DNA from: Oxynema aestuarii AP17
GTDB taxonomy: Bacteria > Cyanobacteriota > Cyanobacteriia > Cyanobacteriales > Laspinemataceae
NCBI RefSeq assembly: GCF_012295525.1
Contig: NZ_CP051167.1
Span: 5,749,299 to 5,813,298, forward strand
DNA: 64,000 nucleotides
Direction: 5' to 3'
Below the pieces are notes generated by a model that saw only the letters and a list, made by a program, of their open reading frames with translations, ran no database searches and was not told the origin of the DNA. The translations under genes and the position numbers were made by a program. The stretch's first letter is position 1, and the number at the start of each line of letters is the position of its first letter. This document shows positions 36,099 to 47,642 of this stretch, piece by piece.

Positions 36099-36207
36099 TA
36101 CAGCAATTGGCGCTGTCATGAGTTACAAGAGGCAAAGATCCCCCCAACCCCCCTTCAAAAGGGGGGCAGTGAAAGTCCCCCTTTTGAAGGGGGATTTAGG
36201 GGGATCG
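36099..36207 (+). mobile_element. MITE-like small dispersed repeat, copy A (~108 bp, two internal GC-rich hairpins)
   Basis: tacagcaattggcgctgtcatgagttacaagaggcaaagatccccccaaccccccttcaaaaggggggcagtgaaagtcccccttttgaagggggatttagggggatc. A near-identical inverted copy lies at 47534..47642. Confidence 0.7.
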
Positions 36208-36261
36208 GCACTGTACCTCGATCGGATCGCCCGAGTGCTGTATGAGAGTTTATGAAAGTTT

Positions 36262-37482
36262 ATGAAGATTTTAGTTTTAAATGCCGGATCTAGCAGTCAG
36301 AAAAGTTGCCTTTATGACATAAAAAATCCTCCTAAAATAGTACCGAATTCTCCCTTGTGGGAAGCTAAAATAGATTGGACTCGTCACCGGGGAGTGGCGG
36401 AATTAACGGCAAATAAAGAGGAGGAAAGATTAGAGAAAACATTAGCAATTAAAAACCCTACAGAATCACGATCGCCCGCGATCGCGCAGATGTTAAAAAC
36501 CTTGTGGGAAGGCAAAACAAAAGCGATCGCCGACCCTCAAGAAATTGATGCCGTCGGACATCGCATCGTTCACGGCGGCGACCAGTATCGATCGCCCGTG
36601 ACGATCGATCGCGATGTCAAACAGACGATCGCCGAATTGTCCTCCCTGGCTCCATCGCACAATCCCGCCAATTTAGAAGGAATCGAGGCGATCGAAGAGA
36701 TTTTACCGGAAATTCCCCAAGTCGCCGTCTTCGATACCGCCTTTCACGCCCACTTACCGCCGGAAGCGGCGATTTATCCCGTGCCTTACGAGTGGTACGA
36801 TCGCGGCATCCGCCGTTATGGATTTCACGGCATCAGCTATCAATATTGCAGCCAGCGCGCCGCACAACTGTTGGGCAAACCCTTAGAAAACTTGCGCTTG
36901 ATTGCCTGTCATTTAGGCAATGGCTGTTCTCTGGCGGCGATCGCCGGAGGGCGCAGTATCGATACGACGATGGGATTTACCCCGTTAGAAGGCTTGATGA
37001 TGGGGACGCGATCGGGATCCGTAGATCCGGGACTGTTGCTCTACTGGCAACAACAGCACGATCTCACGCCGGAAGATTTAGATAACATGCTCAATCGATC
37101 GTCCGGTTTGAAAGGAATTTCCGGCGTTTCCGGCGATTTGCGCGAGATCGACGCGGCGATCGCCCGGGGAAACGATCGCGCCCGACTGGCGTTGAAATTA
37201 TACCAAAAATCCCTCAACGCTCACCTCGGATCGATGCTGGTGGCGTTGGGAGGCGCGGACGCGATCGTATTTACCGGAGGGGTCGGCGAACACCACCCGC
37301 AAATTCGCGAGGCGGCGTGCGAGGCGTTGGCGCTGATTGGCGTTAAATTAGATCCGCACAAAAACGATCGATCGCCTGTGGATACGGATATTGCCGCGCC
37401 GGATTCGAGGGTGCGGGTCTTGCTGGTGCGGGCCGAAGAAGATTGGGCGATCGCCCGGGAATGCTGGCGCGAGCTGCGTTAG
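36262..37482 (+). CDS. ackA: Acetate kinase
   Basis: 406-aa ORF. MKILVLNAGSSSQK is the N-terminal ASKHA motif, and VHGG..., GFHGISYQY and FTGGVGEH are acetate kinase signatures. It is co-directional with xfp. Confidence 0.92.
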   Translation: MKILVLNAGSSSQKSCLYDIKNPPKIVPNSPLWEAKIDWTRHRGVAELTANKEEERLEKTLAIKNPTESRSPAIAQMLKTLWEGKTKAIADPQEIDAVGHRIVHGGDQYRSPVTIDRDVKQTIAELSSLAPSHNPANLEGIEAIEEILPEIPQVAVFDTAFHAHLPPEAAIYPVPYEWYDRGIRRYGFHGISYQYCSQRAAQLLGKPLENLRLIACHLGNGCSLAAIAGGRSIDTTMGFTPLEGLMMGTRSGSVDPGLLLYWQQQHDLTPEDLDNMLNRSSGLKGISGVSGDLREIDAAIARGNDRARLALKLYQKSLNAHLGSMLVALGGADAIVFTGGVGEHHPQIREAACEALALIGVKLDPHKNDRSPVDTDIAAPDSRVRVLLVRAEEDWAIARECWRELR

Positions 37483-37489
37483 CACCTGC

Positions 37490-38536
37490 CTAGCACCCGA
37501 CCAAGGCATCCAAAATCGGATCGGCACTGAAACGCACGGGGTCGGCACAGGGTAACCCGGTTTCCTCTTGCACGGCGGCGATCGCGCCTTTCGCCCCCGC
37601 ATCGTCTAAATCTCTTGTATTGAGGGCGATCGCGGCGACGGGAACCGGGGCGAACGCCCCCGCCGCGTGGGCGATCGTTTCGTAGATTTGAATCGCGGCG
37701 GGTAACGGTGGAATCGGGACGTGAGGGTGATTGCGAATGTGGGTTTGTCCGGCCCGGTGAACCAGAACTAAGTGAGTCGGTTGGGAGCCGCGAATCAGGG
37801 GTAAAGTGGCGGTAGAACCGGGATGAAATAAGGAACCCTGCCCTTCGACAAACACCAGATCGCGATCGCGACCGTAACGCATCACCATTTGTTCGACGGC
37901 CCCGGCGGCGAAGTCCACGCGCACCGCATCGAGGGGAATCCCTTCCCCCGAAATTGCCAGTCCCGCCTGTCCGGTAGCGAGGAATTGAGAACGCAAACCG
38001 CGATCGCGCGCCCGTCGGTGCAGTTCGATACTCGCCGACATCTTGCCGATCGCCATATCCGTTCCCACCGTTAACACGCGCTTGCACGGGAGTTCCCGGG
38101 CTTGGGCGCTGCCAATTTGCAAGCCGACGGGTTCTTGACGGATGTCCCAAATCCACTGACCGGGGCGCAAACTGTGGCGTAATTCCGGATGGTTGGCGAG
38201 GGAAGTATGCAACCCGTTGACGATCGAGACTCCTGCGGCGATCGCGTGTTGGAGTTCCATAAACCACGACGGCGGGAGTCCACCGCCGGGAGGCGCGATC
38301 CCGATCGCCAAAACATCGGGATGGTAGGCGAGGGCGTCTTCGACGGACTCGACAATCGGAACCTCGCGATCGATTCCCGTTAATTGTAGGAGCGATCGCC
38401 CCACGCATTCGCGATCGATGACGGCGACGATCGTCGCTTCGCTGTAGCGCAATAACGTCAATCCAGTTTTGCCGATACTGCCGAGAATGCCCTCGTGCAG
38501 GAGGATGGCGACTCTACGATCGGGAGTGAGTTGCAC
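37490..38536 (-). CDS. DUF1611-family protein (P-loop-like; typically partnered with a dipeptide epimerase)
   Basis: 348-aa ORF that overlaps the upstream epimerase gene by 23 nt. The domain architecture and its pairing with an enolase-superfamily epimerase match the known DUF1611 context. Confidence 0.65.
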   Translation of the reverse strand: MQLTPDRRVAILLHEGILGSIGKTGLTLLRYSEATIVAVIDRECVGRSLLQLTGIDREVPIVESVEDALAYHPDVLAIGIAPPGGGLPPSWFMELQHAIAAGVSIVNGLHTSLANHPELRHSLRPGQWIWDIRQEPVGLQIGSAQARELPCKRVLTVGTDMAIGKMSASIELHRRARDRGLRSQFLATGQAGLAISGEGIPLDAVRVDFAAGAVEQMVMRYGRDRDLVFVEGQGSLFHPGSTATLPLIRGSQPTHLVLVHRAGQTHIRNHPHVPIPPLPAAIQIYETIAHAAGAFAPVPVAAIALNTRDLDDAGAKGAIAAVQEETGLPCADPVRFSADPILDALVGC

Positions 38537-46459: not shown

Positions 46460-46488
46460 AATATAAATAAGGGGCTTTTTGTATATCT

Positions 46489-47427
46489 CTATCCCTGGGG
46501 ACGCGACCCGATCGCGGCGATCGCCACTCCAAATAATAAAACGATCGCTCCAATTAAAACCGAGATCCCGGGAACTTCATTAAAAACGAGAAAGCCCAAA
46601 AAACTCGATGCAACGGGTTCAAATAAAACCGCCAACGCCACCAAAGTCGGCGACGTCCAACGAACGGCCCAATTTAAGCTCGTATGACCGATCATTTGAG
46701 GAATCAAAGCCATCAGAAGAATATAAAAATAAACTTCCGTGGGATAGCCGAAATATGAAGTTTGAAAAACAAACGGCATCGGGAGTAAAACCAGCGCCGC
46801 ACAAGTACAAACGATCGCGCTGTACGGACCAATTCCCATCCCCCGACTTTGCACCGACTTCGCCAGCAATAAATAGATACTAATCGTCCAAGATCCTAAC
46901 AACGCGAGCAGATCTCCCAAAATTGGGTTACTTCCGCCGTACAACCCGCCACTATCTCCCAATCCGATCGCCATTCCCCCCATTAAGGCGATCGCGATTC
47001 CGGTGACCGTCATTTTCGTGGGTTTGTCTTTGTAAATCCACCAAGACAGCAAGGAAACCCAAATCGGATTCATGGTGACGATCGTCGTCGAAGCGGCGAT
47101 CGAAGTATAAGAAAGCGACGCGATCCACCCGGCGAAATGGAGCGCTAAAAACACGCCAGCGAGGGCAGCTTGGGCGATCGTCACTTTTTCGAGACGCGCG
47201 GGTTTGAAGTTGCGCCACGCGGGAGCCAACAAAAGTGAGGCAATTGTGAGGCGAGTGGCGGCCATCACCAAACTAAAGCCAATCCCTCGGGTTCCCGCAG
47301 CTTCCAGGGTCAAGCGGATAAAAATGGCGGCAGTGGAGACCGCTAAAACCCCAACCGCGATCGTCAGATTGAGCTGCCACGCCAGGGGATGTTTTACAGG
47401 AGAGTCCAGAGTATGTTTGACAGTCAT
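46489..47427 (-). CDS. EamA/DMT-family transporter
   Basis: 312-aa ORF with 10 TMs and two EamA-like halves. Confidence 0.8.
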   Translation of the reverse strand: MTVKHTLDSPVKHPLAWQLNLTIAVGVLAVSTAAIFIRLTLEAAGTRGIGFSLVMAATRLTIASLLLAPAWRNFKPARLEKVTIAQAALAGVFLALHFAGWIASLSYTSIAASTTIVTMNPIWVSLLSWWIYKDKPTKMTVTGIAIALMGGMAIGLGDSGGLYGGSNPILGDLLALLGSWTISIYLLLAKSVQSRGMGIGPYSAIVCTCAALVLLPMPFVFQTSYFGYPTEVYFYILLMALIPQMIGHTSLNWAVRWTSPTLVALAVLFEPVASSFLGFLVFNEVPGISVLIGAIVLLFGVAIAAIGSRPQG

Positions 47428-47533
47428 TGGGGATCTTCTGGGGTAAAATCTAGGGGGAATTTACCACAGATAAAACTAAATCGCTGTCAGGAAAAGAGCA
47501 TAGAGCAGTTTTCGCTGTTCGGCAGTACATTTC

Positions 47534-47642
47534 GATCCCCCTAAATCCCCCTTAAAAAGGGGGACTTTCACTGCCCCCCTTTTTAAAGGGGGGTTGGGGG
47601 GATCTTTGCCTCTTGTACCTCATGACAGCGCGAATTGCTGTA
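47534..47642 (-). mobile_element. MITE-like small dispersed repeat, copy B (inverted relative to copy A)
   Basis: The reverse complement of cgatccccctaaatcccccttaaaaagggggactttcactgcccccctttttaaaggggggttggggggatctttgcctcttgtacctcatgacagcgcgaattgctgta aligns with copy A at >90% identity by eye. Confidence 0.7.

Follow-up and report, generated by a model that had tools for sequence, protein, structure and literature searches.

The two inverted repeats that bracket the segment from ackA to an EamA-family transporter gene in the window (the whole 64-kb stretch of DNA that was analysed) are very probably non-coding, non-autonomous IS630-derived MITEs of about 140 bp, which would depend for their mobility on an IS630-family (Tc1/mariner-type DDE) transposase acting in trans. 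Such a transposase binds both ends of an element, excises it and inserts it at a TA dinucleotide, with duplication of the TA. The ends of the present MITEs would be derived from an IS630-family element, with the transposase supplied in trans. Both copies are probably old and now immobile insertions in intergenic DNA, and their inverted orientation at a distance of 11.3 kb is presumably incidental. IS630-derived MITEs form a familiar class that is abundant in cyanobacteria, and this pair is an ordinary kind of element.

One copy (copy A) lies between the phosphoketolase gene (xfp) and the acetate kinase gene (ackA), the start codon of which is found 19 nt past the TA that closes the copy, and a promoter-like site stands 22 nt upstream of the copy (Table 1). 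The other (copy B) sits in a 334-bp gap between the divergent EamA and NTP_transferase genes. The bracketed segment contains, by Pfam, ackA, DUF1611, an MR_MLE epimerase, MatE, LigT, YCII, TPS and EamA, together with an SRP RNA at 42387-42483, which is the sole match in the window above the gathering threshold of Rfam; the gene content assigned to this segment in the original prediction is borne out by these precomputed Pfam and Rfam matches. Neither a GC nor a skew discontinuity is found at the repeats, and the 64-kb window has neither an IS630 transposase nor an IS-type end pair.

Table 1. Features of the two MITE copies, of their gene neighbourhood and of the related IS elements (positions in the window unless a replicon is named).
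Feature	Location	Strand	Basis or remark
Phosphoketolase gene (XFP), upstream of copy A	33540..35972	+	Pfam XFP_N/XFP/XFP_C; 810-aa product
Promoter-like site TTGAAA-17-CATAAT	36049..36077	+	Consensus scan, 10/12 matches; consensus match only, not functional evidence
MITE copy A with flanking TAs	36099..36242	+	Element proper 36101-36240, 140 bp
Copy A left terminal inverted repeat, CAGCAATTGGCGCTGTCATGAGTTACA	36101..36127	+	23/29 to IS630-type end consensus, TA counted
Copy A central palindromic cassette	36137..36206	+	Inverted arms 36137-36166 / 36177-36206, predicted fold
Copy A right terminal inverted repeat, diverged	36208..36240	+	Aligns with other family ends
Acetate kinase gene (ackA)	36262..37482	+	ORF, Pfam Acetate_kinase
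EamA-family transporter gene, start facing copy B	46489..47427	-	ORF, Pfam EamA
MITE copy B with flanking TAs	47501..47642	-	Element proper 47503-47640, 138 bp
Copy B right terminal inverted repeat	47503..47533	-	Aligned with right ends of Roseofilum and metagenome locus L117
Copy B central palindromic cassette	47534..47604	-	Arms 47534-47563 / 47575-47604, 87% complementary
Copy B left terminal inverted repeat, CAGCAATTCGCGCTGTCATGAGGTACA	47614..47640	-	25/29 to IS end consensus, TA counted
NTP_transferase gene, divergent from EamA	47762..48652	+	ORF, Pfam NTP_transferase
IS630-family IS	O. nigro-viridis PCC 7112 pOSC7112.02, 193,659-194,679		About 1020 bp
Other IS630-family IS	Nostoc sp. C057 p057_H; Aphanizomenonaceae TIOX110 plasmid		

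The 64-kb window contains two copies of the repeat only. The arm of copy A at 36099-36207 (+) and that of copy B at 47533-47642 (-) are 95.5% identical as reverse complements over 110 columns with one 1-nt indel (E = 7e-45, BLASTN within the window), and perfect runs of about 30 bp occur within them; two inverted repeats of ~108 bp with more than 90% identity had been predicted at these places. Sub-motifs of 18-29 nt have exactly two occurrences each in the 64 kb, whereas 0-0.09 would be expected from shuffled sequence. The two GC-rich hairpins that had been described are present in copy A as quoted, CCCCCCTTCAAAAGGGGGG and CCCCCTTTTGAAGGGGG, and copy B has variants in the loops, TTTAAAAA and TTTTTAA. 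The predicted folds of the two copies, at -63.5 and -63.4 kcal/mol (z = -6.0 and -7.3), are far stabler than those of shuffled sequences. The predicted unit of 108 bp turned out too short: the elements extend to about 140 bp by some 35 further bases on the GGGGGATC side of each copy, which make up a second, diverged terminal inverted repeat.

The element as a whole is composed of a TA, an imperfect terminal inverted repeat of ~27-45 bp that starts with CAGC and contains ATGAGGTACA, a GC-rich palindromic cassette of ~70 nt, the second terminal repeat and another TA. The cassette of copy A reads GATCCCCCC-AA-hairpin-CAGTGAAAGT-hairpin-ATTTA-GGGGGATC. An HMM of the family ends matches both ends of copy A (36099-36144, E = 2e-9; 36242-36199, E = 1.5e-5) and both ends of copy B (47642-47597, E = 3.4e-10; 47501-47541, E = 5.7e-8). 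The terminal inverted repeat of copy A is imperfect, being 83% complementary between 36099-36110 and 36231-36242, and its right-hand part includes a HIP1-like CGATCG sequence. The right end of copy B terminates in ...CTGCTC in place of ...GCTG, and the right ends of the two copies are of different sub-types despite the 95% identity over the left 110 bp. The TA dinucleotide is found on both sides of each copy. The sole ORF across copy A, of 85 aa, consists of the element itself, almost wholly MITE sequence, without a Pfam match, and in the JGI annotation it appears as a 53-aa version, likewise without one; the earlier description of this ORF as spurious is therefore reasonable, and neither version should be annotated as a gene.

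The link to IS630 first came from a weak DNA match to an Oscillatoria plasmid and was later verified. IS elements of ~1020 bp with the ends TA/CAGCACTTCCGGCTGTTATGAGGTACA.../TA are present in Oscillatoria nigro-viridis, Nostoc sp. C057 and Aphanizomenonaceae plasmids. Their product is named 'IS630 family transposase' by PGAP; at locus L127, positions 2387-2950 match Pfam DDE_3 (E = 4.8e-31), and the N-terminal part gives weak HTH_SB/HTH_23 matches. TA flanks all six full-length IS ends and every complete MITE end. Among 17 aligned ends of IS and MITEs, TA...AGC...TACA is invariant, and the C of CAGC is retained in all except one (16/17). With an HMM built from the IS ends only, the best two matches in the 64 kb are the left ends of copy B (E = 5.8e-7) and copy A (E = 1e-3), and the right end of copy A matches weakly (E = 2.8). 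Because of the degenerate right ends, that of copy A by this IS-only model and that of copy B by its ...CTC in place of ...CTG, both copies are possibly immobile fossils. The IS630-family IS of filamentous cyanobacteria share with the MITEs the terminal TA/CAGC-N-TT...GCTGT-ATGAGGTACA (23-25/29 at the left ends), the TA flanks and a small palindrome CAGC...GCTG inside the terminal repeat, whereas the MITEs lack a transposase gene, have more diverged right ends and carry as their 70-nt interior a cassette that is not derived from the IS630-type IS. The end of a Roseofilum sp. Guam contig shows the same IS end followed by a transposase N-terminus; for this fragment, a protein search gave no homologue, and Pfam, NCBIfam and tblastn on plasmids gave nothing.

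Relatives of the elements occur in other genomes. A scan of the genome collection with a 21-mer of the central loop gave two matches only, both in Roseofilum and neither in the source genome. Within 8 kb, Roseofilum halophilum carries a full copy and a truncated one, and Roseofilum acuticapitatum has two copies, likewise within 8 kb. Copy B and the R. halophilum copy are 90% identical over 122 nt, and the Roseofilum copies at L001 2023-2158 and L002 1337-1472 are also flanked by TA. A further copy of the family is located at metagenome locus L117; an initial scan of the metagenomes, with a 24-mer reaching from the end into the core, had given 0 matches. In R. acuticapitatum, one copy stands between two M16 peptidase genes; Roseofilum sp. 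Guam and two further related sequences lack it. The filled junction GATTAC-insert-TACCTATT stands against the empty GATTACCTATT, and the filled site shows a duplicated TA(C), the exact junction being approximate because the region consists of variable heptamer repeats and the comparison is between species; the site downstream of the Roseofilum M16 gene is too diverged for such a comparison. An empty site was found for neither copy in the window, and copy A is present in the nearest relative, a 97%-identical strain (L129), as well as in another assembly (L131). A look-up of the MATE protein returned nothing beyond the source contig and a contig of 8 kb that breaks off in the MITE, and exact-protein look-ups of ackA, the NTP-transferase and an ORF at the window edge returned no records. 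Two related contigs stop inside the MITE, at which short-read assemblies break.

The terminal inverted repeats, the TA flanks, the lack of coding sequence, the relatives elsewhere, the filled/empty polymorphism and the IS630 match at the ends justify the designation 'MITE-like' in the original prediction, where a local duplication had been named as the reading if there were only two copies genome-wide and no terminal features. A duplication of hairpin-rich intergenic sequence without mobility would agree with the two copies in the 64 kb, but it is extremely unlikely in view of the related copies at unrelated loci in other genera, the difference in right-end sub-type between copies otherwise so similar, the IS-matching ends and the insertion polymorphism in Roseofilum. 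The repeat might instead be immobile and act in cis as a structured RNA leader or regulator, with one copy upstream of ackA and one upstream of EamA in matching orientation. This reading is improbable, although the copies face the same way with respect to the gene that follows, copy A ends shortly before the ackA ATG with the promoter-like site just upstream of the copy, and the predicted fold is very stable. The shared orientation of two copies has a chance expectation of 50%, the core is found in more than 120 unrelated contexts with differing flanks, and no Rfam family reaches the gathering threshold at the element, where the matches below it are to generic miRNA-precursor hairpins; moreover, TA flanks, terminal repeats, ends like those of an IS and insertion polymorphism fit a transposon. 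A terminator role, which had also been proposed, is not supported, as no T-run follows the hairpins, the intrinsic terminator scan gave 0 sites at both copies, and the genes on either side of copy B are divergent. Co-transcription of MITEs and effects of MITEs on mRNA stability are on record (PMC3733652), and copy A may have a secondary effect on the ackA mRNA. With a promoter upstream of copy A, the copy must be transcribed together with ackA; a leader folding at -63 kcal/mol parts ackA from xfp and from any upstream promoter, and it could affect ackA expression.

An inversion mediated by the repeats, as proposed, is possible in principle with inverted copies of 110 bp and 95% identity, but no support was found for it, and an alternative arrangement was not seen. 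Repeats of such length and identity, with perfect runs of this size, suffice for rare RecA-dependent recombination, which would flip the 11.3-kb block from ackA to EamA. On the other hand, no alternative junction is observed, composition and skew do not break at the repeats, and the 97%-identical strain has the same order of YCII-LigT-MatE-epimerase-DUF1611-ackA-MITE, a comparison confined to the ackA side because the contigs of the related assemblies end inside the MITE. An inversion would presumably also separate phosphoketolase from the acetate kinase that directly follows it, the two being consecutive pathway steps. From this adjacency and the 97%-identical strain, the phosphoketolase-acetate kinase order across copy A looks native, and it is quite improbable that the copies are an inversion switch or that the segment has already been inverted. 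A further reading is a composite transposon made up of the two MITEs and the intervening 11.3 kb, the outer ends of which would be the two well-conserved left-type repeats. In inverted orientation, these outermost ends (36099... and 47642...) match at 32/34 positions, better than the end pair of either element, and both are flanked by TA, yet TA flanks are uninformative where the element itself duplicates TA. The cargo would include the SRP RNA gene, the boundary would split the phosphoketolase-acetate kinase pair, the composition is the same as in the flanks, and no second copy of the block was found, all of which makes such a transposon hardly credible.

As IS630-derived MITEs, the present elements resemble several known repeat families. 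The Nezha MITEs of Anabaena/Nostoc are about 130-170 bp long, have terminal inverted repeats in common with ISNpu3 and show empty and filled sites between species (PMC3184786). Like these and other cyanobacterial MITEs, the present elements belong to this size class and have IS-like terminal repeats, direct repeats, a predicted fold of great stability and a site that is filled in one species and empty in a related one, the likeness to Nezha/ISNpu3 being one of description. The Correia/NEMIS, ERIC and RUP MITEs are intergenic, hairpin-forming and often co-transcribed with a neighbouring gene, Correia with a TA target (PMC3733652, PMC10969869). The intergenic site, the hairpins and, for Correia, the TA target are shared with them, whereas sequence, host phylum and parent IS differ. 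REP/REPIN elements are defined by a 20-40-bp palindrome, a GTAG/CGTC tag and a link to the RAYT transposase (PMC3733652). This assignment was rejected for the present elements, which have terminal inverted repeats and TA flanks instead of a GTAG/CGTC tag. 'Small dispersed repeats' (SDR) of Nostoc were reportedly described by Elhai and coworkers in Genome Research in 2008. REP/BIME mosaics and Nostoc SDRs are similar to the cassette only, as short GC-rich hairpin modules that are intergenic, lineage-wide and present in varied combinations and numbers. The cassette differs from REP/BIME in lacking the GTAG/CGTC tag and in being embedded between transposon ends rather than free, and the likeness to the SDR families is by description only.

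The central cassette has a much wider distribution than the elements in the window. With the consensus GATCCCCCC-TA(A/G)-CCCCCCTTnnnAAGGGGGG-spacer-CCCCCTTnnnAAGGGGG-ATTTA-GGGGGATC (~70 nt), it is found at at least 120 metagenome loci and in 22 cyanobacterial plasmid records, and viral contigs and phage records are without it. It occupies the middle of MITE families with at least six unrelated terminal repeats across cyanobacterial orders, and these families fall into three target-duplication classes, namely 2-bp TA, 3-bp TNA (19/19 and 3/3 cases) and ~10 bp. The arms of the cassette co-vary, loops included, 22 of 59 being exact reverse complements against 7.2 expected, and spacers and loops are sometimes flipped. 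RNAalifold predicts a three-way junction with almost no informative covariation in cassettes collected by a search pattern with a fixed 3' 20 nt. A plasmid search for IS partners of two other cassette-bearing families gave none for one and two short unannotated matches for the other, and literature searches with literal sequence strings gave no relevant paper.

This pattern is observed, and it is uncertain that it reflects function rather than recombination among MITEs. Tentatively, the cassette might be a cyanobacteria-wide module that has been independently acquired by, or has invaded, MITE families mobilised by unrelated transposases, a possibility to which we give the smaller share of belief. 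If so, the core would be under selection or self-propagating, and its role might be to pair transposon ends, to form a DNA cruciform or to perform some host or RNA function. If not already described, the cassette would present a testable question about the origin of MITE interiors and the success of one hairpin module.

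The inverted repeat pair of the original prediction is confirmed in the window, where the arms at 36099-36207 (+; copy A) and 47533-47642 (-; copy B) align as reverse complements over 110 columns with 95.5% identity and a single 1-nt indel. For their diagnostic sub-motifs the 64-kb window has exactly two occurrences, where at most 0.09 are expected, and the predicted folds of either strand, at about -63 kcal/mol, are far more stable than those of shuffled sequence (z from -6 to -7.5). The genes assigned to the bracketed segment were listed correctly. GCGATCGC is found throughout the window, which is cyanobacterial. 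When species-representative genomes were scanned for the central loop, related copies were retrieved in two Roseofilum species, and alignment with these leaves the repeats where they had been placed but extends the unit, previously given as about 108 bp, by about 35 nt past GGGGGATC; these nucleotides represent a second, more diverged terminal end. An HMM made from ten ends of the MITE family matches both ends of copies A and B (E from 3e-10 to 1.5e-5), and the terminal pair of copy A, TACAGCAATTGG / CCGAGTGCTGTA, is also recovered by a local repeat finder. The element has a five-part layout, namely TA, a terminal repeat, a palindromic cassette, a second terminal repeat and TA. The first terminal repeat starts with CAGC and holds a small palindrome (CAGC..GCTG) and the block ATGAGGTACA, and the cassette of 70-71 nt spans GATCCCCCC to GGGGGATC. 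The left 110 bp of the two copies are 95% identical while their right ends are of different sub-types, so that neither A nor B is a simple recent duplicate of the other. Ten bases past the right-hand TA of copy B lies CCTGACAGCG (47482-47492). It looks like the beginning of a left-type end, such as TA followed by CTGACAGCG in the Roseofilum locus L002, and its complementarity to 47620-47630 is 91%; a further insertion may have left it behind, or the similarity may be due to chance.

Coordinates of the elements and associated repeats, with the target-duplication classes of cassette-bearing families (L001 and L002 are Roseofilum loci)
Feature	Locus or ends	Position	Detection or number
Copy A without flanking TA	window	36101-36240	
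Copy B without flanking TA	window	47503-47640	
Ends of copy A	window	36099-36144, 36242-36199	family-end HMM
Ends of copy B	window	47642-47597, 47501-47541	family-end HMM
Flipped spacer	L001 vs window	2069-2104 vs 36160-36181	
Second Roseofilum repeat	L001	6180-6236	
Second Roseofilum repeat	L002	1265-1325 and about 1500-1530	
Heptamer arrays	window	16136-16202, 23834-23893, 25603-25661, 54429-54473	
Target duplication, TA	window MITE family		
Target duplication, 3-bp TNA	GAGGATGTTTGAAAAGT ends		19/19 elements
Target duplication, 3-bp TNA	GAGACTGTTTGTAAA ends		3/3 elements
Target duplication, about 10 bp	CTACCGTGTACACAC and (C)AATACGGTTCACTTAA families		

A contig of Roseofilum sp. Guam terminates with a MITE-type end sequence followed by an ORF starting ...KAYSVDLPEKIV. 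Protein searches with this ORF fragment gave no homologues, and a weak DNA match leads to the Oscillatoria nigro-viridis plasmid pOSC7112.02, which carries an element of 1021 bp bounded by TA on both sides, with CAGCACTTCCGGGTGTTATGAGGTACA and TGTACCTCATAACATCCGGAAGTGCTG as its ends. Its transposase is frame-shifted and carries an IS630-family annotation, with a Pfam DDE_3 match (E = 4.8e-31) in the C-terminal part and 67% identity between its N-terminus and the Roseofilum fragment. Nostoc sp. C057 and an Aphanizomenonaceae strain have plasmid-borne elements of 1019-1020 bp that share these ends and the TA flanks and are about 76% identical to the Oscillatoria IS. In all 17 aligned ends (7 from IS and 10 from MITEs) the block TACA is unchanged, as is every base of TACAGC except its first C, which 16 of the 17 keep. 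The left ends in the window, taken with the flanking TA, are identical to the IS consensus at 23 and 25 of 29 positions, and they take the top two places when the entire window is searched with an HMM from the IS ends alone (E = 5.8e-7 and 1e-3). The suggestion of a MITE-like nature is thus both supported and sharpened by the terminal repeats, the TA flanks, the relatives elsewhere and the ends matching an IS630 element, and copies A and B are IS630-derived MITEs by the usual criteria.

Elements of the IS630/Tc1-mariner group are known to transpose by cut-and-paste, with a TA as the target that is duplicated on insertion, and by analogy the MITEs would move in this way. A TA is found on either side of every complete copy. 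Two copies are found in 8 kb of R. acuticapitatum and one full and one truncated copy in 8 kb of R. halophilum, and a metagenome locus (L117) holds one more family member. The R. acuticapitatum copy sits between two M16 peptidase genes, and the orthologous spacer has no insert in Roseofilum sp. Guam or in two further related sequences. Compared with the empty site (GATTACCTATT), the filled one (GATTAC, the insert, then TACCTATT) fits a TA duplication, with a junction that is approximate because the spacer has variable heptamers and the comparison is made between species. An empty site for copies A and B was not found among the related assemblies compared. Contig L129 (Logan SRR23969305) carries copy A and ends inside it, and a second assembly contig of 8 kb, L131, breaks off in the interval of copy A, at about 140 nt before ackA. 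The end of L129 (6300-6369) carries hairpin sequence in scrambled form, so that the element seems to be a source of breaks or artefacts in these short-read assemblies of relatives. In two Roseofilum species, a second repeat, GTTTCCGCAAGCGGACATGAAAAT...GGGCAAGATGCCCGC, directly adjoins the MITE copies, and could be a small element in its own right or a site favoured for insertion.

Recombination between two inverted 110-bp copies that are 95% identical could flip the segment between them, as had been proposed, but there is no sign that this has occurred: phosphoketolase adjoins acetate kinase in the present order, the internal gene order is the same in the related strain represented by L129, and the composition does not break at the repeats. 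Such an inversion is unlikely, and so is a composite transposon consisting of copies A and B with the DNA between them. Although the outer ends of the pair are identical at 32 of 34 positions and inverted, which gives the block the outward form of such an element, the cargo would include the SRP RNA gene and the block would split the xfp-ackA pair. Relative to window 36129-42559, L129 is 97% identical over ackA-DUF1611-epimerase and only 83% over MatE-LigT-YCII, with a switch near 39.6-39.7 kb of the window that makes this part of the bracketed segment a recombination mosaic.

As one of two MITEs, copy A fills 144 of the 289 bp of the phosphoketolase-ackA spacer, with the ackA start codon 19 nt past its end and a promoter-like site 22 nt upstream. 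Because copy A lies between this site and ackA, an ackA transcript begun upstream would necessarily include the hairpin. In the 334-bp gap from which the EamA and NTP-transferase genes diverge, copy B fills 142 bp, a position that rules it out as a terminator, and the idea of a terminator is unsupported at either copy, with no terminator-like hairpin and T-run. No Rfam family matches copies A or B. The JGI annotation has a 53-aa gene at 36094-36255 (+), almost entirely made of copy A and with no Pfam hit, which shares its frame and stop with the 85-aa ORF of the original prediction. Elsewhere in the window, an 889-aa ORF (30666-33335, +) has matches to Pfam Vault, Vault_2/3/4 and MVP_shoulder, and its predicted product is a major-vault-protein homologue in a cyanobacterium. 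AT-rich heptamers (TTTAGAT / TTGTAGA type) form tandem arrays in both orientations.

The cassette is not present in the parent IS630 element. A scan with 20 nt of it found at least 120 metagenome loci, and a plasmid search found 22 records, all cyanobacterial (Nostoc, Pseudanabaena, Leptolyngbya, Synechocystis, Picosynechococcus, Planktothrix and others), while the viral contigs and phages searched have none. In the metagenome loci (L007-L126), it is central in MITE families with unrelated terminal repeats, and the cassette-bearing families fall into three target-duplication classes, TA, TNA and about 10 bp. Its two hairpin arms co-vary, including loops and loop lengths, and are exact reverse complements in 22 of 59 cassettes, where 7.2 would be expected and none of 2000 shuffles gave more than 15. 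The R. halophilum spacer is the exact reverse complement of that in the window (ACTTTCACTG vs CAGTGAAAGT) with unchanged arms, and one hairpin loop is flipped in some other cassettes (loci L025, L050, L082 and L109), which suggests inversion inside the palindrome. Other arrangements at some loci are a half cassette alone, additional hairpin units, or a tandem array of a 44-nt unit; in the array at L014 (11474-11581, at a contig end), the unit is made from the right-hand half (CAAGGGGGATTTAGGGGGATCAAACCAATTCAAGTCCCCCTTAT). The fold predicted from the alignment is a three-way junction, on which covariation gives no information, since the 3' 20 nt were set by the search. Literal cassette-sequence searches of the literature found no description, and the most relevant paper (Elhai et al., 2008) was outside that search. 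The pair itself is an ordinary addition to an already known class of element, and the part worth following up is the modular, phylum-wide core.
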